A stretch of DNA of 64,000 bases from Candidatus Nomurabacteria bacterium RIFCSPHIGHO2_01_FULL_37_25. GTDB lineage: Bacteria > Patescibacteriota > Minisyncoccia > Phycocordibacterales > UBA9973. Positions 1 to 20,530 of this stretch are shown here, piece by piece. How positions within the stretch are numbered: the first letter of the stretch is position 1; each line of letters starts with the position of its first letter. Below the pieces are notes generated by a model. The model was not told the DNA's origin. It did not search any database and saw only the letters and a list, made by a program, of their open reading frames with translations. The stretch spans positions 21,666-85,665 of the forward strand of contig MFTH01000016.1 of assembly GCA_001786765.1 (NCBI GenBank), in the 5' to 3' direction. The position numbers were made by a program, and so were the translations under genes.

Positions 1-1519
1 CATGCAGATATACAGTATGAAATGGGGCTTTTTGAGCTAAATAAAGTCCAAATATAACCATGCGAGGCACCCACTTGAATATCAAATCATGTCCAGTCTC
101 CATCACATCTGTAGGATAATATTTTTTAAAATCTTCATGTTTTGGAAAACCTGTTGTCATAAGTGGCCATTGACCAGAAGAAAACCATGTGTCGAAAGTA
201 TCAGGATCTTTTGTCCAACCTTCACCATTTGGCTTTTCTTTACTTACTTTAAACTCTTCGCCTTTAAACCATGCAGGTATAGGTATGCCCCAAACTATTT
301 GCCGTGAGATGTTCCAGTCTATACTGTTTTCCATCCAATATCTGAAAATCTTTTCATAATTATCTGGAATAAATTTAATTTCACCTCTGTTCACTGAATT
401 GAGCGCGAGTTTAGTAAGGGGAGCCATCTTTACAAACCATTGGTCTTTTATCTGGGGTTCAATCACAGTACCACACTTGTAACATTTTTTGATTACGTTT
501 TGGTATTTTTCATCTATTTTAATCAGCAATCCTTTAGCTTTTAGTTTTTCTACAATCTTTGCTCGGGCGTCTTTGATATTCATTCCCGCAAATTCGTTAG
601 CTATTCCTAGCAACTTGCCTCGCCAGTCAATAATTTGTTCGGTGTCTAGGTCGTGCCTCTTTGCAATTTCAAAATCTATTTGCGAGTGCCACGGTGTGAT
701 GGTCATTACTCCAGTGCCGAATTCCATATCTATCGCCTCGTCTTTTATGATAGTTGCTTCTATTGGTCCATTTATCCATTCTAGTTTTATTTTTTGTCCG
801 TGTTTATATTCAGCATATCTTTTGTCATCCGGATGCATCACTACATATTTATCTCCAAATTTTGTTTCAGGCCGGACAGTAGCAATAGAGAAAGGGCCGT
901 ATTTTAAATAAAAAAGAGGTGACAATTCTTCAGAAGATTCAGTTTCTACTTCAGAGAGTGAAGTTTGATGTTTATAACACCAGTTTATGGCGCGTTTGCC
1001 ACGGTAGATTATTTTGTCGTTATACATTTTTACAAAAGTGTCTTGAGTTTTTTCCACCACATCAGGATCGAGAGTAAACTTTTCTCGCGACCAATCGCAA
1101 GATGCTCCGAGCGACCTGACTTGAGTTTCCATATTTTTTTTATTCAGTAAGGTAAAATCCAAGATTTCTTTATATAAATCATTTGGGTCCATGCCAAAAC
1201 GCGAGCGACCTTCTTTTTCTAGTTTTTTTTCATATACTACTTGAGTTTCAAATCCAGCATGATCTGCGCCAGGCAACCAAAGGGTTTTGAAGCCTGCCAT
1301 TCTTTTATACCTGATCATAATGTCTTCAAGTGTGATAAAAAGGGTGTGTCCAGCGTGCAAGTCTCCATTTGCGTTTGGCGGAGGCATGACGATAGTGAAA
1401 GATTTATGCCTTTCATCTGGTAAATTGTCCGGGTTAAAAAAACCGCTATCTTCCCATAGCTTGTAAATTCTTTCTTCTGTTTCTTTTGGGTTATAGGGCT
1501 TGAGTAATTTCTCTTCCAT
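1..1519 (-). CDS. valS: valyl-tRNA synthetase, N-terminal ~506 aa (C-terminus lies beyond window start)
   Basis: Minus-strand translation from ATG (complement of 1517-1519) reads MEEKLLKPYNPKETEERIYKLWEDSGFFNP...FTIVMPPPNANGDLHAGH...KMSKS-less N-terminal half, colinear with ValRS (PPPN.TG.LH.GH HIGH region). The frame stays open to position 1. It is absent from the ORF track only because there is no stop within the window. Confidence 0.85.
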   Translation of the reverse strand, partial: MEEKLLKPYNPKETEERIYKLWEDSGFFNPDNLPDERHKSFTIVMPPPNANGDLHAGHTLFITLEDIMIRYKRMAGFKTLWLPGADHAGFETQVVYEKKLEKEGRSRFGMDPNDLYKEILDFTLLNKKNMETQVRSLGASCDWSREKFTLDPDVVEKTQDTFVKMYNDKIIYRGKRAINWCYKHQTSLSEVETESSEELSPLFYLKYGPFSIATVRPETKFGDKYVVMHPDDKRYAEYKHGQKIKLEWINGPIEATIIKDEAIDMEFGTGVMTITPWHSQIDFEIAKRHDLDTEQIIDWRGKLLGIANEFAGMNIKDARAKIVEKLKAKGLLIKIDEKYQNVIKKCYKCGTVIEPQIKDQWFVKMAPLTKLALNSVNRGEIKFIPDNYEKIFRYWMENSIDWNISRQIVWGIPIPAWFKGEEFKVSKEKPNGEGWTKDPDTFDTWFSSGQWPLMTTGFPKHEDFKKYYPTDVMETGHDLIFKWVPRMVIFGLYLAQKAPFHTVYLH

Positions 1520-3080: not shown

Positions 3081-3566
3081 ATGGGACTTATGTATGAAAT
3101 TCTAAAAGAGCTAAGTAGCCAATCTTTTTATTATAAAGGGGTACAGGTTAATTTATTTGGACTCCCAAAATTTAAAGATTATTCGCGGAATAGTATAAGC
3201 GGTTCTCTCTCTTATATGCATAAAAAAGGTTTTTTAGAATATGATGACGAAAAAATAAAAATTACTCATGAAGGTCGAAAATATATAACAAGAAAATTCG
3301 ATTCATTAAAACAATTTAATTTCAAATTTGGAAAAGATGCGCCCAAAAATCTTATAGTTATGTTTGATATTCCGGAGACTAGAAAAGCCGAAAGAGAATG
3401 GTTACGTTGGCATCTAAAAAAATTTAATTACTTGATGATTCAAAAGAGCGTGTGGGTCGGGCCGTCACCACTACCTAAAGAATTTTTAGATTATGTAAAA
3501 AGTATAGGTATAAAGGATGGATTAAAAACCTTCAAACTAGCCAAAGGCTACGTATTTGAAAAATAA
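3081..3566 (+). CDS. small wHTH + PaaX-C/Cas2-fold domain protein (PaaX-family-like putative regulator)
   Basis: 161 aa. The C-terminal LIVMFDIPETRKAEREWLRWHLKKFNYLMIQKSVWVG resembles the PaaX C-terminal / Cas2-like motif (hhhFDIPE...R..LR..L...GF..LQ.SVW). The N-terminus looks like a winged helix. Confidence 0.45.
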   Translation: MGLMYEILKELSSQSFYYKGVQVNLFGLPKFKDYSRNSISGSLSYMHKKGFLEYDDEKIKITHEGRKYITRKFDSLKQFNFKFGKDAPKNLIVMFDIPETRKAEREWLRWHLKKFNYLMIQKSVWVGPSPLPKEFLDYVKSIGIKDGLKTFKLAKGYVFEK

Positions 3567-3681: not shown

Positions 3682-4932
3682 CTATAATATTTTCTCTTTA
3701 ATTCTCTCAAGGGCGAGGATGAATGCGCCCATGCGCAGAGAAGTTTTTGTTTTTTTTGTTTTTTCTAACATTTTTTTAGAGGCGCCTTTCATAATTTTAT
3801 TTAATTTTTCAAAAACCTTTTCTTCACTCCAATGTTTATTTTTCAAATTTTGGTCCCATTCAAAATACGAAACTACAACTCCTCCGGAATTCGCAAGTAT
3901 ATCTGGCACAACCGGAATATCTTTTTTAAATAAAATTTCATCTGCCTCGGGCGTCGTAGGACCGTTGGCAAGTTCTAAGATAGCTTTAGCTTTTATTTTT
4001 CCAGCATTTTTCTCAGTTATAACATTTTCAAAAGCGGCTGGGATTAGAAGGTCACAGGGGAGTTCGAGTAATTCTGCATTTGTAATATTTTTAGCTCCTG
4101 GAAAATTTTTAAAGCTACCAGTCTTTTTCTTATAATTTTCAACACCTTCTAAATCTAATCCATTTTTGTTAAATATTGCGCTCTTAGAATCAGATACCGC
4201 TATGACTTTATGTTTATTTTCAGTAAAAATACGCGCTACATTTCCACCTACATTTCCAAAACCTTGAACCACTACTTTGCATTCTTCTGGGAGTTTGAGT
4301 TCTTTTCGAAGAGCGTCAAAAGCATAAAAACCACCTAAGCCAGTTGCTGGGCCTCTACCTTCTGAACCGCCTTTGTCTATAGGCTTACCTGTAAATGTCG
4401 CTCTTGTTTCATTGATATTTTTATTTTTAGTTATTTTTTTGTATTCATCTGCCATCCAAGCCATTATCTCTGGCGTGGTATTTACATCCGGCGCAGGCAC
4501 ATCTTTATATGGTCCCAAAATATCAGAAAGTTTTTGCACCCATCCGCGCGAAAGTTTTTCCAGTTCTCCTTTAGACAACTTTTTCGGATCAACTGTTACT
4601 CCGCCTTTACCTCCACCCATCGGAATTCCAGCTACTGCGCATTTGAGCGCCATCCAGAAAGCGAGAGCTTTTACTTCATTTATTTCAGTATCAAGATGGT
4701 ATCTGATTCCACCCTTGTATGGCCCTAGAGCGTTGTTATATTCCACTCTATATCCTTCAAAAACTCGCAAAGAACCGTCGTCCATTTTTATTGGAATCGA
4801 AATTCTTATATCGCGATCGGGTTGGCGCATTCTCTTTATAAACTCAGCGCTAAAACTTTTGTTTATTTTAGCAACTTTGTCTAGCTGTGCCATGGCGTTC
4901 TTAAATGGATTGTGCATGTTTATAGTATACAT
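3682..4932 (-). CDS. gdhA: NAD(P)-specific glutamate dehydrogenase
   Basis: 416 aa. KGGIRYH, GIPMGGGKGG, GFGNVGG dinucleotide motif. Confidence 0.9.
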   Translation of the reverse strand: MYTINMHNPFKNAMAQLDKVAKINKSFSAEFIKRMRQPDRDIRISIPIKMDDGSLRVFEGYRVEYNNALGPYKGGIRYHLDTEINEVKALAFWMALKCAVAGIPMGGGKGGVTVDPKKLSKGELEKLSRGWVQKLSDILGPYKDVPAPDVNTTPEIMAWMADEYKKITKNKNINETRATFTGKPIDKGGSEGRGPATGLGGFYAFDALRKELKLPEECKVVVQGFGNVGGNVARIFTENKHKVIAVSDSKSAIFNKNGLDLEGVENYKKKTGSFKNFPGAKNITNAELLELPCDLLIPAAFENVITEKNAGKIKAKAILELANGPTTPEADEILFKKDIPVVPDILANSGGVVVSYFEWDQNLKNKHWSEEKVFEKLNKIMKGASKKMLEKTKKTKTSLRMGAFILALERIKEKIL

Positions 4933-4938
4933 TAAAAA

Positions 4939-5697
4939 TTAAATTTCTGGTACGAATTTTTTTAAGACTTCAAATTCTTCATTAGAGTTTGCGGCGAGTG
5001 CTTCGGTCGGCTCGATATCGATAGATTCGATTTTTTCTCCTTGGTTCATAGCTATTTGTATCAAATCAGTTTGATAATATTGTTTTTGGTCATTATTTGT
5101 TTGGAGCTTCTTTAAGTTTTTCCAAAGCCAATTTGCATTAAAACAAAAAAATATTGGATTTATTTCGGTAACTTTCTTTTCTTCATCATTTGTATCTCGA
5201 AACTGAACGTCTTTGGTGATCTCATTCTTTTCGTTACGAATTATTCGGGAAAAACTATTATAGAAAACATTTCTCCAGTCTTTAAAATCCGGAAGCTTTA
5301 CTGTAGCCATGGTTATCTTTGCCCCTGATTCTAGATGTTTATTTGCTAGTTTTTGTATCGTTTCAGTAGTTATAAAAGGATGATCGCTCGGCAAAACCAT
5401 TACATTTTTTGACTTATTTTTTAGCAAACTCTCCGCAATCATTATGGCGTGTCCAGTGCCTAGCTGTTCTTCTTGGATTGCGTAATTATATTTGTCGCCA
5501 AGTTCTTGCATTATCTCCTCTCTTCTGTGTCCGACAACCACAACCGGGTTTTCGTCTATTCCAGATTTACTGATTGATTCCAGTACGTATTTTATCATTG
5601 GCTTAGCATTTAATTGCACTAAAACTTTCGGCACCTCGCCTTTCATTCGAGTGCCTTTGCCGCCAGCCAGTATTATGATTCGTATATCCTTTTGCAT
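4939..5697 (-). CDS. sugar-phosphate nucleotidyltransferase, GlmU N-terminal (uridyltransferase) domain only
   Basis: IIILAGGKGTRMKGEVPKVL, QEEQLGTGHA. It matches the GlmU pyrophosphorylase domain. There is no left-handed beta-helix acetyltransferase half (252 aa). Confidence 0.65.
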   Translation of the reverse strand: MQKDIRIIILAGGKGTRMKGEVPKVLVQLNAKPMIKYVLESISKSGIDENPVVVVGHRREEIMQELGDKYNYAIQEEQLGTGHAIMIAESLLKNKSKNVMVLPSDHPFITTETIQKLANKHLESGAKITMATVKLPDFKDWRNVFYNSFSRIIRNEKNEITKDVQFRDTNDEEKKVTEINPIFFCFNANWLWKNLKKLQTNNDQKQYYQTDLIQIAMNQGEKIESIDIEPTEALAANSNEEFEVLKKFVPEI

Positions 5698-5718
5698 GAG
5701 TAATACATAATATATCGT

Positions 5719-5862
5719 AAATTACGAAACTTGTCGAAGGCATGTCTTTTTTAGGGGGTTTCGAGGCTGTCGAGCGCTGAACTTCAAGATTTTTCAAGGC
5801 TAATTTTTATTTGAAAAATCCGTACCCTAGAAAAAGACATGCCCAGAAAGAGTTTTGTAATT
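5719..5862. repeat. family-1 structured repeat, copy A (long form: outer stem + inner stem + core 5754-5827, core forward)
   Basis: Outer inverted repeat AAATTACGAAACT / AGTTTTGTAATT. Inner inverted repeat GGCATGTCTTTTTTAGGG / CCCTAGAAAAAGACATGCC. Core is GGGGGTTTCGAGGCTGTCGAGCGCTGAACTTCAAGATTTTTCAAGG...TTGAAAAATCCGTACCC. Confidence 0.85.
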
Positions 5863-5875
5863 CAAAGTAATATAA

Positions 5876-6475
5876 TTAAACCTTGCGTTTTGCAATTTCT
5901 TTCAGCACTTTCGGAATTTTTTTAAAATCTTCTTTTAAAATTTCGCGCATAGAGCCGTCATATAAAGCCGCGGCGGGATGATAAAGAGGGAAGAAGTAGC
6001 TTGTGGATATGCCTTTGAATTTTTTAATTAAAAGTTTGCCGTGCGCTCCGGAGATTTGTAAATCTGGGAAAAAATTATTCATCGCATGCCTACCTAAAAA
6101 TATTATTAGCTTGGGCGAAATTATTTTTAGTTCCCCTAGTAGCCATTCTCGACAACTGCTTTTTTCTTCTGGCAGGGGATCGCGGTTGTTTGGAGGGCGA
6201 TATTTTACTATATTTGTAATATATATTTCACTTCTCTTTAGATTTATCAATTCCAGCATTTCGTCCAAAAATTTTCCCGCTGCTCCGACAAATGGAATTC
6301 CGAGCTTGTCTTCACTGCGACCTGGCGCTTCTCCGATAAAAATAATATCTGCATCAGGGTTGCCAACTCCCGGCACTGCTTGTGTAGCAGTCTTTTTGAG
6401 TTCGCACTGACATTCTTCCAGCCACTTCTTATTTAGGTTTTCTAACTCTAGGCTTTTATCCATAAGGTATATCAA
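5876..6475 (-). CDS. uracil-DNA glycosylase, family 4
   Basis: FIGEAPGRSED, GIPFVGAAGKFL, HPAAALY motifs. Confidence 0.8.
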   Translation of the reverse strand: MIYLMDKSLELENLNKKWLEECQCELKKTATQAVPGVGNPDADIIFIGEAPGRSEDKLGIPFVGAAGKFLDEMLELINLKRSEIYITNIVKYRPPNNRDPLPEEKSSCREWLLGELKIISPKLIIFLGRHAMNNFFPDLQISGAHGKLLIKKFKGISTSYFFPLYHPAAALYDGSMREILKEDFKKIPKVLKEIAKRKV

Positions 6476-6633
6476 TAGTATAACTTAAAAATTCTTTTGC
6501 AATTATGTATAAAAATGTTATTATATTTTCAACTTGGCTCTATCGTTTAACCAAGTTAAAATGTAGCGGACATCGGGTTTTTAAAAACCTGTAAATTGGT
6601 GAAGCTATAATTATTAAGAAAAATATAAATTAA

Positions 6634-6705
6634 GGCCCCATCGTCTAACGGTTAGGACACCGGGTTTTCAATCCGATAATCAGAGTTCGATTCTCTGTGG
6701 GGTCA
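6634..6705 (+). tRNA. tRNA-Glu (anticodon UUC)
   Basis: GGCCCCATCGTCTAACGGTTAGGACACCGGGTTTTCAATCCGATAATCAGAGTTCGATTCTCTGTGGGGTCA. Anticodon loop TTTTCAA. One C-A mismatch closes the anticodon stem. No encoded CCA. Confidence 0.8.
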
Positions 6706-6718
6706 CAAATTTTTTGAG

Positions 6719-6830
6719 AGAGCAAACTGCTTTGCTCTTGATAAAATTTGTGAAGACAGAAGCATAATTCGTCAGTAGACGAATAGCTGAGTCCGGGTCT
6801 GGAAAATTTGCTTTCGACGGAAAGCAAATT
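6719..6830 (+). promoter_or_regulatory. three consecutive perfect hairpins between tRNA-Glu and the HEPN-like gene
   Basis: AGAGCAAA-ctgc-TTTGCTCT (6719-6738). TTCGTC-agta-GACGAA (6768-6783). AATTTGCTTTC-gacg-GAAAGCAAATT (6805-6830). Confidence 0.6.
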
Positions 6831-6887
6831 ATTGTAGACCACGTGAACTCTGCACGCGAAGCGTACAGAACTTGGTATAATAAGATT

Positions 6888-7448
6888 ATGGAAGAAAAGA
6901 TGGATGAAAATATTGACAAGAGTCTTTCAAGAACCGGGAGATATGTGATTTATAGTATTTGGATACAAAGTCAACTTTCAGATTTAATCATTTTAAATAG
7001 AAATAAAGGTATTATAAATGATTTTAATAGTCAAGAAATAATCCCATCAATTTTAAGAGAGCAGAGATATATTTTTTGGGAAAAGGATTTTAGGGAAGTT
7101 AAAGAAATTTTTGAAACTGAGTTTTCTAGTTTATTAACAACTGAGGTAAAAATGGTATTAAGCTCCATTTATTATTTGAGAAATGCTATAGTTCATTCGC
7201 ATGTTTCGGTTGGTCGCAAATATTTATTATATAAACCTAAAAATGAAAAGATAGTACAAAGCATAAAAGAAACTCTAACCATAAAGAATAAAAGTGATGA
7301 AAACTTGAATGTTCCTGAAATCTTTAAAATTGATTTTTCAAAGGACTCATTATATTTTGAAAACATGCAAGTAATAAAAAATTTTGATGAAGTTTTTCTT
7401 AAAATGATTTGTGAAAAAATTGGTGTTTTTCATCCAAAAATAAGGTAA
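6888..7448 (+). CDS. HEPN-motif protein (Abi/DUF4145-like putative RNase); start uncertain
   Basis: The ORF track gives a GTG start at 6843. In-frame ATGs lie at 6888 (leaderless, 7 nt after extended -10 TGgTATAAT at 6873-6881) and 6900. The motif LSSIYYLRNAIVHSHV matches R-x4-H of HEPN domains. Confidence 0.45.
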   Translation: MEEKMDENIDKSLSRTGRYVIYSIWIQSQLSDLIILNRNKGIINDFNSQEIIPSILREQRYIFWEKDFREVKEIFETEFSSLLTTEVKMVLSSIYYLRNAIVHSHVSVGRKYLLYKPKNEKIVQSIKETLTIKNKSDENLNVPEIFKIDFSKDSLYFENMQVIKNFDEVFLKMICEKIGVFHPKIR

Positions 7449-10183: not shown

Positions 10184-10200
10184 AATTTTTATTACATTAA

Positions 10201-10237
10201 TCCCGACCGTCTGTCGGGATCCCGACTATGGTCGGGA
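10201..10237. repeat. tandem CCCGAC/GTCGGG hairpin pair (ftsA-ftsZ spacer)
   Basis: TCCCGAC-cgtct-GTCGGGA then TCCCGAC-tatg-GTCGGGA. Confidence 0.8.
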
Positions 10238-10315
10238 CTTATATAAAAACATACTAGCATCAAAAGAAAAAAAAGCAAATTTTTTGTAAAAATCTAAAAA
10301 AAACTTTTGAGAAAG

Positions 10316-12655: not shown

Positions 12656-14119
12656 ATGTCTTCAATTGATGAAATTAGAGATATTAGAATAAAAAAACTT
12701 GAGCTCTTAAAGAGTAGAGGTTTGAACCCGTATCCAGCGGAGTCAAACAGAGAGATTTCTTTGAAAGAGGCTATAGAGAATTTTGATAATCTAGAAAAAA
12801 CAAAAGATATGAAATGGATAGCAGGACGAGTTATGTCTATCCGCGGGCAAGGCGCGATTGTTTTTATAACACTAAATGACGGCACCGCTTCTTTTCAGGG
12901 TTTGTTTAAAAAAGATATTCTGGGTGATGATAAATTTAGTTTTTTTAACGAAGTAGTTGATATTGGTGATTTTATAGAAATCAAAGGAAGTTTTTTTGCA
13001 ACCCAAAGAAAAGAGAAAACACTAGAAGTCAAAGATTGGCGTATGCTCTCTAAAAGTTTGCGACCACTGCCAGAAAAGTGGCATGGACTCGTAGATGTGG
13101 AGGAAAGATTTAGAAAAAGGTATCTAGATATTTTAATGAATCCTGAATTAAAAGAACTTTTTGAAAAGAAGGCGAAGTTTTGGGAGGCGACTCGTAATTT
13201 TTTGAAAAAAGAAAATTTCCTAGAAGTTGAAACACCAACGCTTGAAATCACGACCGGTGGAGCAGAAGCCCGACCATTTAAAACTCATCATAATGATTTT
13301 GATATAGATGTTTATATGAGAATATCGGTGGGTGAGCTCTGGCAAAAGAGATTACTCGCGGCTGGTTTTCCTAGAGTTTTTGAAATTGGTAGAGTTTATA
13401 GAAACGAGGGATCAAGTCCGGAACATACCCAAGAATTTACCAGTATGGAATTTTACGCAGGGTATATGGATTACAAACAGGGAATTGAATTTACAGAAAA
13501 AATGATTAAAGAAGTTGTCATGGAAAGTTTTGGCACACTTGTTTTTGAAATACATGGACACAAAATTGATTTATCTAAAAAATGGGAACATATTCTTTAT
13601 GTTGATACAATAAAAGAAAACTCAGGTATTGATGTGCTATCGGTTACAGAAAAAGAAATGATGAAAAAACTAGATGAGCTTGGAGTGAAATATGAAGGCA
13701 CAAATAAAGAGCGTTTGACTGACTCGCTCTGGAAATATTGCCGAAAGCAAATAAAAGGACCGGTGTGGCTTATTGATGTGCCAAAACTTGTTTCTCCACT
13801 TTCAAAAATAAAACCAGAAAACCCACTACTCACTGAACGCGCGCAGCTCATCTTGGCGGGAGCGGAAATGACTAATGGATTTTCAGAATTAAATGATCCG
13901 ATAGATCAGAAGGAACGTTTTGAAGTGCAAAAGAAATTAATTGAAGGGGGAGATAAAGAAGCAATGATGCCAGATGATGAATTTGTGGAAATGTTGGAAC
14001 ACGGCATGCCTCCAGCTTTTGGTTTCGCTTATGGGGAGAGACTCTTTGCTTTTTTGGTAGATAAACCGCTCCGCGAGACGCAATTTTTTCCATTAATGAG
14101 ACCTTTAAATAAAGATTAA
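12656..14119 (+). CDS. lysS: lysyl-tRNA synthetase (class II)
   Basis: 487 aa. N-terminal OB fold. Class II motifs FRNEGSSPEHTQEFT..., GGAEARPF. Confidence 0.9.
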   Translation: MSSIDEIRDIRIKKLELLKSRGLNPYPAESNREISLKEAIENFDNLEKTKDMKWIAGRVMSIRGQGAIVFITLNDGTASFQGLFKKDILGDDKFSFFNEVVDIGDFIEIKGSFFATQRKEKTLEVKDWRMLSKSLRPLPEKWHGLVDVEERFRKRYLDILMNPELKELFEKKAKFWEATRNFLKKENFLEVETPTLEITTGGAEARPFKTHHNDFDIDVYMRISVGELWQKRLLAAGFPRVFEIGRVYRNEGSSPEHTQEFTSMEFYAGYMDYKQGIEFTEKMIKEVVMESFGTLVFEIHGHKIDLSKKWEHILYVDTIKENSGIDVLSVTEKEMMKKLDELGVKYEGTNKERLTDSLWKYCRKQIKGPVWLIDVPKLVSPLSKIKPENPLLTERAQLILAGAEMTNGFSELNDPIDQKERFEVQKKLIEGGDKEAMMPDDEFVEMLEHGMPPAFGFAYGERLFAFLVDKPLRETQFFPLMRPLNKD

Positions 14120-14202
14120 AAATATCTCATAAATAAAAAACTCAGGTAGTCATAGACTTCCTGAGCTGCTTTCGTCATCTTATATTAGATGACGAAATAA
14201 AT

Positions 14203-14279
14203 GGAGGGGGCACCCTACAACCTAGAGAAGGGGAATCTCTAGGTTTTTCCGTGGGAAATACGGTGCAGGGTACCCTCCC
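14203..14279 (+). ncRNA. candidate small structured RNA / structured leader (unknown class)
   Basis: Long-range helix GGAGGGGGCACCCT (14203-14216) / AGGGTACCCTCCC (14267-14279). It encloses hairpins CCTAGAG-aaggggaat-CTCTAGG (14221-14243) and CCGT-gggaaat-ACGG (14249-14263). It is preceded by hairpins at 14141-14165 and 14173-14194. Confidence 0.3.
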
Positions 14280-14306
14280 ACTTTCGATACTACAAAATCC
14301 AAACAA

Positions 14307-14331
14307 AAAGTAAAGAAAGTTGTCCACAGTT
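14307..14331 (+). repeat. 25-nt direct repeat copy 1 containing a DnaA-box-like 9-mer TTGTCCACA (second copy 14678-14702 with perfect TTATCCACA)
   Basis: AAAGTAAAGAAAGTTGTCCACAGTT versus AAAGTAAAGAAAGTTATCCACAGTT. The two copies are bracketed by inverted AATCCAAAC (14296-14304) and GTTTGGATT (14700-14708). Confidence 0.7.
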
Positions 14332-14745
14332 ATATTTTTAAAAATAAAAAATTCCCAAAAGGGAACCCTTCGGGAATTAGTGGTTTTATTTTAAAAAACC
14401 ACCGATTTTTGTTAGAGGCACCCAGAAGCCCGTTTAGGACAATTCCTAAACGGCGTGGTGCCTTGGATGCCTCTAATTTTTTTAATATACATAAAAATTA
14501 AAAAATCTCAAGCGCTTGTGGGCAACTCGAGACTTTCTCGTGACGTCGTAAACGACGCCGATTTTTTGCCGATAATCAAGTTCCTCCGCATCCCCCTTCA
14601 TCCAATCTTTCGATCAAATGAAGGGGGCGACTGAGGTAGTTGTGGTCGGCAAAGGAAGTATAAAACTAATAAATATAAAAGTAAAGAAAGTTATCCACAG
14701 TTTGGATTTGGTATTATTTTGTCTATGGAATACAATATATATCAG

Positions 14746-14767
14746 GTGGGAAAAAGTGGGAAAAGTG
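14746..14767 (+). promoter_or_regulatory. GTGGG direct repeats resembling MraZ-binding repeats in the mraZ promoter
   Basis: GTGGGaaaaaGTGGGaaaaGTG. Three 5-nt-spaced repeats lie ~70 nt upstream of mraZ, as described for MraZ autoregulation in other bacteria. Confidence 0.45.
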
Positions 14768-14779
14768 TTAATAAAGTAA

Positions 14780-14820
14780 TCCCGACGTAAAGTCGGGACC
14801 CCGACCTAAAAGCGTCGGGG
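14780..14820. repeat. tandem CCCGAC/GTCGGG hairpin pair upstream of mraZ
   Basis: TCCCGAC-gtaaa-GTCGGGA then CCCCGAC-ctaaaagc-GTCGGGG. Confidence 0.8.
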
Positions 14821-14834
14821 TTTAGAAAAAAAAT

Positions 14835-15272
14835 ATGCTTATCGGAGAATATATACATACGATTGATGAAAAAAACAGAGTTTCAATACCGGTAAAGTTT
14901 CGCAAAGAGCTCGGTAAGAAAATTATTATCACACCTGGACTTGGTCAATGTTTGTTCATTTTTACAATTAAAGAATGGGAAAAGGTAAGCAAGAAACTTT
15001 CTGATTCGGATTCTGATTTATCTTTTTTGAAAGCTGATCAAAGAAGTTTTAACAGATATATGTTTGGAAGAGCGGTGGAAATAGAGTTTGATTCGATCGG
15101 CCGAATATTAATTCCTGATTTTCTGAAAGATAGAATCGGACTTGCGAATTCCGCGGCAATTGTCGGAGTAAAAGACAGAGTGGAAGTATGGAGTGAGAAA
15201 GCATGGTCGGAGCAAAAAGAAATCGTGGAAAAGCAGGCGGAACAGTTGGCGGAGAAGTTGGGAAGTTCCTAA
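14835..15272 (+). CDS. mraZ: transcriptional regulator MraZ
   Basis: MLIGEYIHTIDEKNRVSIPVKFRKEL... A duplicated SpoVT/AbrB-like fold. First gene of the dcw block. Confidence 0.85.
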   Translation: MLIGEYIHTIDEKNRVSIPVKFRKELGKKIIITPGLGQCLFIFTIKEWEKVSKKLSDSDSDLSFLKADQRSFNRYMFGRAVEIEFDSIGRILIPDFLKDRIGLANSAAIVGVKDRVEVWSEKAWSEQKEIVEKQAEQLAEKLGSS

Positions 15273-15384: not shown

Positions 15385-16329
15385 ATGCACAGGACAGTTC
15401 TTTTAAATGAAGTTATAGATGGGTTGAATTTAGGCTCCGGTTCCATCGTCGTAGATGCAACATTTGGCGGCGGAGGGCATAGTCTGGAGATTTGTAAAAG
15501 ATATCCGAGTGTGAGGATAATTGCCTTAGATCAAGATCAAAGTGCTCTCGAAAAAGCCAAAAGTAAATTCAAAGATTCAAATTGTGATGTTACTTTTATA
15601 AATGCGAATTTTAGAGACCTAGATAGGGTGAACTTGGGAAATTTAAGCGTCGTGGGTTCCCTGTCCTCTGGTCTCCGAGGGCGAAGGCGCAAAAATTTTC
15701 CAAGTTCACCCGTAGACGGAATCATTTTTGATTTAGGTTTGAGTTCTGACCAGTTGGAGAATTCTGGACGAGGATTTTCTTTTCAAAAAGATGAACCACT
15801 TTTAATGACTATGAAAGAGAATCCAACTTCCGGAGATGTTACAGCGAAAGATGTTGTAAACACTTGGGGAGAAGATAGTTTAGCCGATATTATTTACGGT
15901 TATGGTGAAGAAAAGCAAGCTCGCAGAATCGCTAAAAGAATAGTGGAATTTAGGAAAAAACAGGAAATTAAAACCACCTTTGATTTGGTAAAAGTAATAG
16001 AAGAGGCGATTCCAGCCAAGTTTCGTAAAGGCAAAATCCATTATGCCACTAAAACTTTTCAGGCAATAAGGATAGCGGTAAATGATGAGTTGGGAGCGCT
16101 TGCCGAGGGTTTGGATAAAGGTTTTAAGTTATTGAAGGTAGGAGGGAGGATGTCGGTGATTTCTTTCCATAGTTTAGAGGACAGGATAGTAAAGAGATTT
16201 TTTAAGAAAAAAGCGGAAGAAAATTTAGCAAAGTTAATTAATAAAAAACCCATTATTGCTAAATTAGAAGAAATAAAAAATAATCCGAGGTCAAGAAGCG
16301 CAAAATTAAGAATTTTATCCCGACGCTAA
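15385..16329 (+). CDS. rsmH: 16S rRNA (cytosine1402-N4)-methyltransferase RsmH, carrying an in-frame ~80-nt repeat insertion
   Basis: VVDATFGGGGHS, VDGIIFDLGLSSDQL, SFHSLEDRIVK. Extra segment NLSVVGSLSSGLRGRRRKNFP relative to RsmH homologues. Confidence 0.9.
   Translation: MHRTVLLNEVIDGLNLGSGSIVVDATFGGGGHSLEICKRYPSVRIIALDQDQSALEKAKSKFKDSNCDVTFINANFRDLDRVNLGNLSVVGSLSSGLRGRRRKNFPSSPVDGIIFDLGLSSDQLENSGRGFSFQKDEPLLMTMKENPTSGDVTAKDVVNTWGEDSLADIIYGYGEEKQARRIAKRIVEFRKKQEIKTTFDLVKVIEEAIPAKFRKGKIHYATKTFQAIRIAVNDELGALAEGLDKGFKLLKVGGRMSVISFHSLEDRIVKRFFKKKAEENLAKLINKKPIIAKLEEIKNNPRSRSAKLRILSRR
15626..15711. repeat. family-2 hairpin element inserted in-frame in rsmH
   Basis: GGGTGAACTTGG-gAAATTTAAGCGTCGTGGGTTCCCTGTCCTCTGGTCTCCGAGGGCGAAGGCGCAAAAATTTT-CCAAGTTCACCC. 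The core is shared with 24905-24970. Confidence 0.85.
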
Positions 16330-16365
16330 TTCGGGACCCCGACACAAATTTACTTGGCGTCGGGG
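16318..16365. repeat. tandem CCCGAC/GTCGGG-type hairpin pair overlapping the rsmH stop codon
   Basis: TCCCGA-cgctaat-TCGGGA then CCCCGAC-acaaatttacttggc-GTCGGGG. Confidence 0.75.
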
Positions 16366-16380
16366 GAAAAAGAAAAATAA

Positions 16381-19993: not shown

Positions 19994-20084
19994 TTGATTA
20001 AAATCGTAGTAGCTTTTAGGTCAAAAAGAAAGGGCCTGCGAAATCTCAAATATATGATAATCACGCAGGCCCAGATGTGGTTGA

Positions 20085-20153
20085 CTACCGCTTACACAAG
20101 CGCTGCCCAATGGCAGCGAACATCACCGCCAAGATGACGGGGGCCGCCGACAT
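20085..20153 (-). CDS. hypothetical 22-aa hydrophobic peptide (type I toxin-like composition)
   Basis: MSAAPVILAVMFAAIGQRLCKR. AAGGAGGA sits 23 nt upstream, which is non-optimal spacing. Confidence 0.15.
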   Translation of the reverse strand: MSAAPVILAVMFAAIGQRLCKR

Positions 20154-20182
20154 TTGGGCGGTCTGTGCCTCTGTGTCCTCCT

Positions 20183-20323
20183 TTAAATTGACTCCATTAA
20201 TTTTTTTTCACCGTGTGGTGATACACACGGTGGTGGATCGTGCGTTGCCCAAAAACGCAACGCTATTGATCCCAACAACATCCCCCCCACACAACAAAAC
20301 AAAACAACTAGAAATCTTTGCAT
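20183..20323 (-). CDS. hypothetical 46-aa hydrophobic peptide with canonical SD (GGAGGA, 8 nt spacer) in a GC-rich islet
   Basis: MQRFLVVLFCCVGGMLLGSIALRFWATHDPPPCVSPHGEKKLMESI. The local GC is far above the genome background. It overlaps the + ORF 20077..20325 from the track. Confidence 0.25.
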   Translation of the reverse strand: MQRFLVVLFCCVGGMLLGSIALRFWATHDPPPCVSPHGEKKLMESI

Positions 20324-20530
20324 AATAACTCTCCTCCCTATCTCAACCTCTCACTTTCGGTGCTGAGGCCATCCTTTTACGGATTTTATAGAGTGATTCC
20401 AAAAAAAGATATATCATGTTAAAATGTTATTGTCAAGGGTTCAAGTAATAGTTTTGTTACCTTTGTGACCTATTGTATGACGAATTAGAACTTGCCTTGA
20501 CCAGGTCAAGGCGCTATCAGGGCGTTATAA

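Follow-up and report, generated by a model that had tools for sequence, protein, structure and literature searches.

DnaA acts as a transcription factor at single boxes that lie within promoters, as at the E. coli dnaA promoter and at Caulobacter ftsZ, and in Bacillus subtilis the ftsL promoter is the one located upstream of yllB, the mraZ homologue. The mra promoter of E. coli, in turn, carries MraZ repeats of the GTGGG type. Binding of DnaA at the B. subtilis ftsL promoter has been observed in vivo (review, PMC8203912), the MraZ site of Mollicutes is quoted as AAAGTG[T/G] (PMC8475190), and REP-associated tyrosine transposases (RAYTs) are described as single-copy and REP-flanked (PMC5581495, PMC3733652).

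Here we compare these systems with the gap that separates lysS from mraZ in a 64-kb stretch of DNA from Candidatus Nomurabacteria (the whole stretch is hereafter called the window). In common with DnaA-controlled promoters, the gap has a consensus TTATCCACA box beside the core promoter of a division gene cluster. In contrast to them, its box is a single site whose position, fixed and in helical phase, is kept across a whole lineage of the candidate phyla radiation (CPR), and this putative site, at which DnaA may either activate or repress, appears to be shared with a divergent promoter. Its MraZ operator, with GTGGGAAAA as the repeat, is otherwise an ordinary member of its class, in which two or three direct repeats recur every ~10 nt immediately upstream of mraZ. 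Our main reading, to which we assign a probability of roughly 0.6, is that the gap is a composite regulatory spacer, in which a conserved mraZ promoter core is preceded by lineage-specific hairpin units.

The gap between lysS and mraZ

The gap is the largest non-coding stretch of the window. It is bordered by lysS, whose product has its closest homologues among the LysS proteins of Ca. Nomurabacteria, and by mraZ, which is followed in order by rsmH, an ftsL-like ORF, a PBP gene and a mur ligase gene. Since the same 715 nt are found in eight independent public assemblies (contigs of the same species, one of them with an 11-N gap), the sequence is not an assembly artefact. Three of the strongest-folding 100-nt stretches of the window fall inside the gap, and its small ORFs of 50–59 aa run across predicted promoters or terminators. 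Every feature that a first-pass annotation had listed in the gap was found where it had been placed (Table 1).

Table 1. Features of the lysS–mraZ gap and its borders, in window positions; promoters, terminators, binding sites and the strand of the units are predictions.
Feature	Position	Strand	Basis and details
lysS (lysine-tRNA ligase)	12656–14119	plus	Left border of the gap; Pfam tRNA-synt_2 (3e-65) and OB anticodon-binding domain
Unit A, conserved 3' part	14126–14202	minus	R2, 29.3 bits (E = 1e-3 over 1 Mb)
Unit A, large GC-rich three-way junction	14203–14279	minus	Outer helix enclosing 10-bp and 4-bp hairpins
Unit A, promoter-like element	14287–14314	minus	-35 TTTACT (14314–14309), 16-nt spacer, -10 TAGTAT (14292–14287); read from the sequence
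Direct repeat, copy 1	14306–14331	plus	Degenerate DnaA box TTGTCCACA at 14320–14328
Unit B, conserved 3' part	14337–14412	minus	R2, 27.2 bits; minus-strand terminator scan
Unit B, large helix	14412–14476	minus	TTAGAGGCA... enclosing CCGTTTAGGA/TCCTAAACGG; then TTTTTTT on the plus strand
Unit B, promoter-like element	14484–14511	minus	TTGAGA-16-TATATT; 10/12 matches; no DnaA box
Unit C, conserved 3' part	14490–14568	minus	R2, 32.3 bits (E = 2e-4), best match in the window
Unit C, large nested helix	14565–14653	minus	TTTGCCGA...TCGGCAAA enclosing CCCCCTTCAT/ATGAAGGGGG
Unit C, promoter-like element	14657–14685	minus	-35 TTTACT (in repeat copy 2), 17-nt spacer, -10 TATACT
Direct repeat, copy 2	14677–14702	plus	Belongs to the conserved mraZ promoter region; core TTATCCACA at 14691–14699
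Conserved DnaA box GTTATCCACAG	14690–14700	plus	Centre ~49 nt upstream of the predicted mraZ transcription start
mraZ/dcw promoter	14708–14736	plus	TTGGTA-17-TACAAT; promoter prediction; position kept across relatives; inside the part conserved by blastn
MraZ operator repeats	14746–14769	plus	GTGGGAAAAA GTGGGAAAA GTGTT; period ~10 nt; at the predicted transcription start
CCCGAC...GTCGGG tandem-hairpin doublet	14781–14819	plus	mraZ 5' leader; dispersed, sequence-conserved; covariance model R1, 79 bits
mraZ, first gene of the dcw cluster	14835–15272	plus	Pfam MraZ (7.5e-28)

A conserved promoter core with an invariant DnaA box

The only portion of the gap that is conserved by blastn, in about 65 relatives, spans positions 14689–14780, and judged by its sequence this portion is the sigma70-type promoter of mraZ and the dcw operon. 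The 3' end of the single, putatively high-affinity DnaA box lies 8 nt upstream of the -35 hexamer, and the complete 11-mer is the same as the R1 and R4 boxes of E. coli oriC including their flanks. All nine positions of the TTATCCACA core, TTAT included, are 99–100% conserved in 67 related species or populations, in which the preceding base is a G in 96% and the following base a G in 81%. With its leading G the core becomes GTTATCCACA, a 10-mer that is in helical phase with the -35 element downstream of it and of which nearly every relative has a single copy in its ~13-kb locus. The distance from the box to the MraZ repeats is 55–56 nt in 47 of the 67 and 63–66 nt, one helical turn more, in another nine. 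Relatives with gaps of only 160–200 nt (159 nt in the shortest) have a single DnaA box. The window holds no second perfect copy of TTATCCACA in its 64 kb, and boxes with at most one mismatch are not enriched across it (22 observed versus 17.7 expected).

A consensus box that keeps a fixed position at the core promoter and is conserved in relatives is what a DnaA-regulated promoter would be expected to show, and because this box is both invariant and phased at the mraZ promoter throughout the 67 species or populations, the comparison supports the DnaA regulatory site that had been suggested for the gap. Most likely, the box would couple transcription of the dcw operon to DnaA, which this organism, as a bacterium, is presumed to encode. 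A role in DnaA titration, proposed at the same time, finds no support, since only one or two boxes are present. The same 19-mer adjoins dnaA or rpmH in unrelated bacteria; when used to scan metagenomes, it returned mostly unrelated contigs, including dnaA/oriC regions of other bacteria (38 loci), with L133 and L150 as the only close relatives. In a further related locus, L066, a dispersed palindromic repeat contains the box.

Past the core promoter, GTGGG repeats are found at 14746 and 14756 and a GTGTT at 14765, as had been noted on first inspection. At least two direct repeats with a ~10-nt period thus lie in the promoter of mraZ itself, and they match the Mollicutes site quoted above. Many relatives additionally carry extra half-sites (GTGGT or GTGGA) that overlap the -10 and -35 regions.

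Three tandem hairpin units

The upstream 535 nt of the gap are lineage-specific and consist of three tandem copies (A, B and C) of one unit, which, on the minus strand to which it is tentatively assigned, reads as a promoter-like element, a long GC-rich helix, a small hairpin and a terminator. A covariance model, R2, which was built from relatives only and did not have the window in its training set, gives exactly three matches in the 64-kb window, all inside the gap and all on the minus strand; in the relatives nearly all of its matches lie within the lysS–mraZ gap, frequently as a pair in one gap. Close relatives have one or two units, versus three in this genome.

The 3' part of the unit is a conserved, locus-specific element in ~25 relatives. 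Read on the minus strand, it comprises two successive hairpins and a T-run: hairpin B (14170–14197), hairpin A (14141–14165) and TTTTTTATTTATG in unit A; a hairpin at 14380–14402, a terminator hairpin at 14350–14378 and the T-run in unit B; and hairpins at 14543–14558 and ~14500–14537 ahead of the T-run in unit C, the second of which has G-U pairs in the minus-strand reading only. The stems of these two hairpins appear to stay paired through compensatory changes (double changes in 4 of 11 pairs, and 21 G-U versus 3 A-C cells on the minus strand), and the small conserved hairpin takes the form AAAUC-GGCG...CGCC-AAAA. Hairpin A, whose equivalent follows lysS in many relatives, likewise with compensatory changes in its stem, probably doubles as a weak plus-strand terminator for lysS.

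The large helices behave differently, having neither conserved sequence nor alignable covariation: they cannot be aligned with one another and yet share a fold, and unit length is kept at 191–232 nt in 18 of 22 units. The multi-helix block of unit A, which the first-pass annotation had described together with the two hairpins preceding it, was confirmed and proved to be a three-way junction; the nested hairpin of unit C was recovered as well. At the position of the unit A junction, L133 has a helix whose outer stem is partly similar, and L089 has a different sequence with the same architecture. The segment 14128–14284 folds with -74.9 kcal/mol on the minus strand (z = -10.5) and -64.7 kcal/mol on the plus strand (z = -6.7), and none of 200 shuffles was as stable. 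A second comparison in the window also favours the minus strand (-141.8 versus -116.9 kcal/mol); across 59–68 relatives neither folding energy nor G-U counts reveal a systematic strand preference, and in L089 the plus strand folds better.

Divergent promoter-like elements and candidate small RNAs

The promoter-like elements of units A and C have counterparts in relatives. Orthologues of the unit A element read TTGACT-16-TACTAT in L089 and L190 and TTGACT-16-TGCTAT in L133, while L150 has the same unit C element and context, with 31 of 32 nt identical. More generally, a minus-strand promoter match of at least 9/12 is found beside the box in 47% of 66 species, versus 10% for shuffled sequences and 9% for the other strand, and the start of the divergent -35 falls in clusters near 6, 17 and 28 nt from the box. 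As the box that precedes the mraZ promoter is also 5–6 nt from the -35 of the divergent element, it is placed between two back-to-back promoters, the divergent one being a prediction.

With three minus-strand promoter-like sites and three sites of the hairpin-plus-T-run type, the tandem units have the predicted signals of small-RNA genes and may encode small RNAs. An unrecognised small RNA, one of the possibilities raised beforehand, therefore gains a predicted promoter and terminator for each of the three units but no Rfam match: Rfam 15 was searched at gathering and permissive thresholds with the window, the gap and 12 related loci, and nothing in the gap reached a gathering threshold (below it, the best hits were terminator-like chance matches), nor was any family found in the gaps of the 12 relatives. 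The units share with divergent, terminator-ended small-RNA genes a promoter-like site, a structured body, a conserved 3' hairpin, a U-tailed terminator, a predicted length of 140–185 nt and conserved synteny. They differ from them in the absence of an Rfam family, in the hypervariable 5' helix and in the three tandem copies, and their transcripts are predicted ones.

Direct repeats, duplication and a RAYT-like gene

The two direct repeats form the ends of units A and C, and each includes a DnaA box and the -35 of a divergent promoter. They are 26 nt long and identical at 25 positions. Their cores, both assigned to the consensus by the first-pass annotation, are TTGTCCACA, a degenerate box, in copy 1 and TTATCCACA, a perfect one, in copy 2. 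That annotation had recognised neither the membership of copy 2 in the conserved mraZ promoter, nor the unit duplication that the repeats mark, nor the hotspot described below. The inverted repeat said to bracket them is real (14287–14304 and 14700–14717, 18 nt, 89%); it is AT-rich, confined to this genome and of marginal significance. Among the relatives, L089 and L133 have one unit in the context of repeat copy 1 (the match is to the left context), L150 has the context of repeat copy 2, and all three lack segment 14332–14676. In L190 a ~44-nt repeat bounds two units, whose junction carries a RAYT-type palindrome.

In at least 12 relatives the same gap houses a RAYT-like gene, a single-copy Y1-transposase with the same species-specific palindrome on both sides, followed by a GTA-type tag. 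The ten RAYT-like proteins scanned all match NF047646 (best 8e-13) and PF01797 (best 3e-5), all of them below the curated cut-offs, and a PDB sequence search with the protein and its profile gave no match. In the window, tblastn detected no such gene, nor a degraded remnant of one in the gap. The terminator hairpin of unit B is identical at only 19 of 26 positions to the palindrome that flanks the gene in L133, and inserted cassettes start 2–22 nt past the box in L190, L072, L034 and the window. This intergenic region is a hotspot, which holds the RAYT-like gene in relatives and is remodelled by unit duplication; the multiplication of the units probably arose with the insertion, and later loss, of a RAYT-like cassette.

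The likeness to REP/REPIN/RAYT systems therefore lies in the single-copy, palindrome-flanked RAYT-type gene in the gap of relatives and in the CCCGAC doublets, which are dispersed palindrome pairs. The window differs in lacking the gene, the relatives' proteins stay under the curated cut-offs, and the large helices are not REPIN-type mobile repeats, because they are single-copy in the window and in the related loci. A mobile multi-copy element (MITE or REPIN) was also considered for the 345-nt segment and rejected, no other copy of it or of the large helices being found in the window, in ~90 related loci or in the relatives' own loci.

Alternative readings of the gap

The upstream hairpins could instead be stacked, largely bidirectional terminators or insulators, mixed with REP-like palindrome debris of a RAYT-like cassette, that would shield the mraZ promoter from lysS read-through, in which case the minus-strand promoter matches would be incidental. 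We regard this explanation as possible but doubtful. It is suggested by hairpin 1 behind lysS, which in most relatives precedes a plus-strand T-run, and by the large helix of unit B, which could also end plus-strand transcription since a TTTTTTT follows it there; several hairpins of the window are bordered by an A-run and, opposite it, by a T-run, copies of the conserved unit part are found behind the ends of both lysS and inserted genes, folding lacks a systematic strand preference, and RAYT-like genes with their palindromes share the gap in the relatives counted above. The conserved unit part, however, occurs at no other gene end in the ~1 Mb searched and is therefore not a generic terminator. 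The small hairpin is conserved in sequence although it lies past the plus-strand terminator, minus-strand promoter matches are some five times commoner than by chance and in phase with the box, unit length is constrained, and the large helices are without other copies. A separate alternative concerns the box itself, as GTTATCCACA might be the target of another factor, be it an inverted MraZ, an unknown regulator, or the recombination or insertion machinery of the RAYT-like cassette. On the minus strand the box reads TGTGGATAA and contains GTGGA, close to the MraZ core GTGGG, so that an inverted MraZ-like half-site, or a site for some other factor, is conceivable; moreover, the cassettes begin just past it, it travels with the palindromic repeat in L066, and the motif also precedes secA-like genes on other CPR-like contigs. 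Nevertheless, we find this improbable, given that the box matches the consensus DnaA box perfectly and hardly varies at its nine positions, whereas the MraZ repeats of the same promoters vary after GTGG, and that most box-bearing species have no RAYT-like gene in the gap.

Far less probable still, and in our view to be rejected, is the suggestion that the gap is or contains the chromosomal origin, with the boxes recruiting DnaA and the AT-rich runs unwinding. The size of this non-coding stretch, the presence of two DnaA-type boxes with AT-rich runs (features that bacterial oriC regions also have), and a change of sign in gene orientation and raw GC skew near 12 kb could all be taken as signs of an origin. 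Raw skew, however, tracks gene strand, and third-codon (GC3) skew of the coding strand, with gene strand controlled, shows no leading/lagging switch (left-minus -0.07, right-minus +0.02, right-plus +0.20, left-plus +0.21). Left-minus genes differ from right-plus genes (p = 4e-5) but resemble right-minus genes (p = 0.27), so that no switch of the leading strand occurs at the gap; to its left and to its right alike, the plus strand is the leading one. The two boxes, one of them degenerate, are 371 nt apart and are a pair produced by duplication, while relatives carry one box in gaps that can be very short. The AT-rich runs, although present, sit in the lineage-specific segment 14332–14676 and coincide with predicted terminator T-runs and promoter -10 regions. 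The dnaA gene is absent from the 64-kb window and from ~80 related loci, no DnaA motifs were found in the window and none by tblastn with DnaA domain IV in Nomurabacteria loci, and there is no TAG/TAA trinucleotide array (DnaA-trios) next to the box. Unlike oriC, the gap has no box cluster, conserved unwinding element, skew switch or adjacent dnaA/dnaN, and its arrangement is not conserved among relatives. A DnaA box, AT-rich DNA and a raw skew change driven by gene orientation should not, in annotation, be equated with an origin call.

A model for the composite spacer

For the composite regulatory spacer that we favour, we propose that DnaA, bound at about -49, would activate or repress RNA polymerase at the mraZ promoter and so tie the expression of division and cell-wall genes to replication status, and that MraZ would regulate its own synthesis through its repeats. 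On the other side of the box, the divergent promoter would transcribe the minus-strand unit into an RNA of ~140–185 nt, made of the fast-evolving GC-rich helix, the small conserved hairpin and a terminator hairpin with a U-rich tail. A more ambitious version, which we offer tentatively, is that one DnaA box between back-to-back promoters controls both the dcw operon and a locus-specific, undescribed family of structured small RNAs in Nomurabacteria, probably extending more widely in Paceibacteria, whose gene would have been amplified to three tandem copies here.

Very few regulators can be recognised in the uncultivated CPR bacteria. The constant position of the box at the mraZ promoter in dozens of their species offers a concrete candidate for a link between replication initiation and division or cell-wall gene expression, parallel to that in Bacillus, and the conserved hairpin unit may represent one of the first small RNAs specific to a lineage within Nomurabacteria.

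Dispersed palindromes in the mraZ leader

The CCCGAC hairpins reported by the first-pass annotation were confirmed as a tandem doublet in the mraZ leader. The CCCGAC...GTCGGG pattern occurs four times in the window, versus zero expected, and the doublet is present in three copies in the 64 kb: beyond the leader, model R1 matches 10189–10247 and 16308–16377, as well as orthologous spots in relatives.

Setting of the lysS-mraZ gap

The window belongs to a population of Candidatus Nomurabacteria (Patescibacteria). Its MraZ protein is identical on at least 23 public contigs, GCA_001786035.1 among them, and LysS homologues with 63-86% identity were found in 80 genomes at species level, which carry the labels Nomurabacteria or Paceibacterota (some are mislabelled Saccharibacteria). 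The 715-nt gap between lysS and mraZ (14120-14834) holds no convincing ORF and is identical in sequence in eight independent assemblies. In ~70 relatives lysS-mraZ synteny is retained, with gap lengths of 159-3027 nt. Close relatives were collected via LysS and MraZ homologues plus one metagenome scan. Elsewhere in the window, a 161-aa ORF (3081-3566, plus strand) has a hit to the central Cas2-like domain of PaaX (7e-13) and a weak one to CRISPR_Cas2; no CRISPR array was seen near it.

A conserved promoter core upstream of mraZ

When the gap was compared with 80 related loci by blastn, conservation was detected only at ~14689-14780. This block was aligned across 67 species or populations, revealing a DnaA box, GTTATCCACA, whose nine box positions are 99-100% conserved (leading G, 96%), a -35 element of the TTGGTG or TTGCGT type 8 nt downstream of it, a -10 of TATAAT or TACAAT and, 7-9 nt past the -10, GTGGGAAAAAGTGGGAAA. 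Almost all relatives have the box 10-mer once in each ~13-kb locus, invariably at the mraZ promoter. With its flanks, the box equals the high-affinity R1/R4 sequence of E. coli. Between the box and the first MraZ repeat there are 55-56 nt in 47 of the 67 members and 63-66 nt in nine, two spacings that lie one helical turn apart. The repeats themselves fit AAAGTG[T/G], the MraZ site in Mollicutes (PMC8475190).

From this arrangement we conclude that the second of two 26-nt direct repeats in the gap (copy 2, 14677-14702) belongs to a promoter of the dcw (cell-division) operon with predicted operators for DnaA and MraZ, the box being a probable site of DnaA binding. In B. subtilis, the ftsL promoter region bound by DnaA is the promoter of the yllB(mraZ)-ftsL-pbpB operon. 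DnaA binding to that region in vivo is reported in a review (PMC8203912). In the literature searched, no account of such a box at mraZ was found for bacteria of the candidate phyla radiation (CPR). The putative DnaA regulatory site proposed in the first-pass annotation has strong comparative support and a Bacillus precedent.

Two further contexts of the box were noted. The 19-mer AAGAAAGTT(A/G)TCCACAGTT precedes SecA-like ORFs (~850 aa, assigned from N-terminal sequence alone) by 280-370 nt at L132 2792, L176 11112, L127 5390 and L171 1109, on long contigs that are CPR-genome-like in appearance, a hint of a small regulon sharing the box. In another related locus, L066 (7960-8045, 430-490 and 1140-1200), the box sits inside a 31-nt repeat with the palindrome AAGGGGWCCCCTT; three copies precede mraZ, two of which pair as a hairpin with the box in its stem, and more copies occur in other intergenic regions.

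A divergent element adjoins the box on the minus strand. Sigma70-type matches of at least 9/12 are present in 47% of 66 species (shuffled, 10%; opposite strand, 9%) and those of at least 10/12 in 21%, against 1-2% in the controls, and the start of the -35 hexamer is offset from the box by ~6, 17 or 28 nt. In both window copies this hexamer falls within the 26-nt repeat.

Tandem hairpin units and their reading

The upstream 535 nt of the gap are three copies of one unit (A, B and C), and a single such unit precedes the box in L089/L090/L191, L133, L150, L193, L189 and L192, where it is bordered on the far side by lysS or by a gene inserted there. Its plus-strand order is ATAAATAAAAA, hairpin 1, a T-run, hairpin 2 (GGCG...CGCC) with GAT after it, a long helix rich in GC, the AT-rich context of a promoter, and the box. 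In minus-strand order, a promoter leads into the long helix, then AAAUC-hairpin 2-AAAA and hairpin 1, and a U-rich tail closes the unit. Hairpins 2 and 1 align well across twelve relatives, pairing is maintained by compensatory stem changes, and the minus-strand reading of the alignment has 21 G-U cells versus 3 A-C cells. A covariance model of this twelve-relative alignment (R2), built with the window excluded, was searched against ~1 Mb. Its three matches in the 64-kb window all fall within the gap and coincide with the unit 3' ends placed by hand, and in ~25 relatives its matches, often two per gap, are almost confined to the lysS-mraZ gap; the R2 element is therefore locus-specific rather than a terminator of general use. 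In 18 of 22 units, 191-232 nt separate the unit end from the box, and the long helices, which cannot be aligned, fold into one common layout. REPIN-type mobility of these helices was rejected, as they are single-copy.

All the structures listed in the first-pass annotation are present. Compared with shuffled controls, the minus strand of 14128-14284 folds with z = -10.5, and 14332-14676 with z = -12.1 (minus) and -8.6 (plus), and three of the strongest-folding 100-nt stretches in the 64 kb fall within the gap. The units are plausible candidate sRNA genes, framed here as a specific, testable family. The earlier suggestion of an unrecognised sRNA is favoured by a locus-specific conserved unit with a promoter-like site and a U-rich tail, and loses ground in that neither strand is systematically favoured in folding over 59-68 relatives. 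Because of this lack of strand preference, and since hairpin 1 is also plausible as a plus-strand terminator of lysS, an array of terminators or insulators is retained as a serious if less likely rival. In the window itself the minus strand folds better, by 10-25 kcal/mol.

At the predicted start of unit A, 14276-14284 forms one isolated repeat of MraZ type on the minus strand, AAAGTGGGA; the matching position of L133 reads CAAGTGGGG. Strong folding was also seen in a 540-nt non-coding stretch (20000-20530) flanked by the mur ligase gene and by a hydrolase gene on the minus strand, where GC reaches 0.62 (genome, ~0.36) and no Rfam match was obtained even at E <= 1.

Features of the window and of related loci (L-numbers)
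Feature	Location	Strand	Context
Genes in order (Pfam)		plus	greA, lysS, gap, mraZ, rsmH, small ORF, PBP gene, mur ligase gene
Genes (Pfam)		minus	ftsZ, ftsA, ybeY, rpsU-like ORF (weak, below Pfam cut-off)
R2 match	14126-14202	minus	unit A 3' end
R2 match	14337-14412	minus	unit B 3' end
R2 match	14490-14568	minus	unit C 3' end
Promoter-like TTTACT-16-TAGTAT	repeat copy 1	minus	divergent
Promoter-like TTTACT-17-TATACT	repeat copy 2	minus	divergent
Promoter-like TTGAGA-16-TATATT	unit B		box absent
CCCGAC doublet	14781-14819 (element 14770-14832)	plus	mraZ leader
CCCGAC tandem hairpin	16308-16377	plus	end of rsmH
CCCGAC tandem hairpin	10189-10247	minus	between ftsA and ftsZ
CCCGAC tandem hairpin	L007 3521-3585; L039 2298-2362; L036 3530-3585; L019 11418-11479; L022 8990-9052; L001 502-568		relatives
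RAYT-like (IS200/Y1-type) gene	L150 4718-5410	minus	
RAYT-like gene	L002, L013, L019, L023, L024, L034, L037, L064, L072, L133		between lysS and mraZ
RAYT-like gene fragment	L061		

The gap is not a replication origin

An origin-like element had also been envisaged for the gap. Raw GC skew flips sign near 12 kb, following gene orientation, and coding-strand third-codon-position skew was used to separate gene orientation from replication strand. Right of the gap this skew is +0.20 for plus-strand and +0.02 for minus-strand genes; left of it, nine minus-strand genes give -0.07 and two plus-strand genes +0.21. The left minus-strand genes differ from the right plus-strand genes (p = 4e-5) and not from the right minus-strand genes (p = 0.27), and thus behave as lagging-strand genes. 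Left and right of the gap alike, the leading strand is the plus strand. Since the leading strand does not switch and the raw skew tracks gene strand, since dnaA is absent from the window and every related locus examined, and since short gaps in relatives retain a single box and lack the AT-rich tract, the origin reading is refuted.

Direct repeats and a RAYT-like cassette

A 230-aa gene with one species-specific palindrome on both flanks occupies the gap in at least 12 relatives. All ten scanned proteins hit both NCBIfam REP_Tyr_transpos and Pfam Y1_Tnp, with best values of 8e-13 and 3e-5, respectively, in both cases below the curated cut-off. This gene, resembling a REP-associated tyrosine transposase (RAYT), appears to be vertically inherited at the lysS-mraZ locus alone and is absent from the window; in L034 and L072 one box lies ahead of it and one at mraZ. 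The window hairpin at 14350-14378 is identical to the L133 palindrome at 19 of 26 nt. The context of repeat copy 1 (14306-14331) occurs as a single copy in L133 and L089, and that of copy 2 is 31/32 nt identical in L150. L190, whose MraZ is 94% identical, independently has two units, bounded by a ~44-nt repeat ending in GTTATCCACAGT, with a RAYT-type palindrome at the unit junction. We infer, as the simplest history, that unit duplication was tied to the gain and later loss of a RAYT-like cassette. Copy 1 has a degenerate box, TTGTCCACA, consistent with a relaxation of constraint at a distance from the mraZ promoter.

The palindrome flanking the RAYT-like gene is followed by GTA(T/A/C). In L150, lysS (5451-7349, minus strand) carries a DUF2000 domain (PF09391) as a C-terminal fusion, as in many database homologues of ~630 aa, and a remnant of the former lysS 3' end, ctgaataaagattaa, persists downstream of the inserted cassette (4660-4700). 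The related Nomurabacteria locus L002 carries a cobalamin riboswitch (918-1066, minus strand; 40.4 bits, over the gathering threshold).

CCCGAC tandem hairpins

A tandem hairpin that recurs within the division gene cluster is conserved in sequence, as (A/G)TCCCGACG-loop-GTCGGGA(C/T)CCCGAC-loop-CGTCGGG. Possible roles are a signal for RNA processing or binding; alternatively, the element may be a REP doublet of the CGTC type. Its orientation is constant relative to local genes and its positions are orthologous in several species; the doublet in the mraZ leader is an insertion relative to most relatives.
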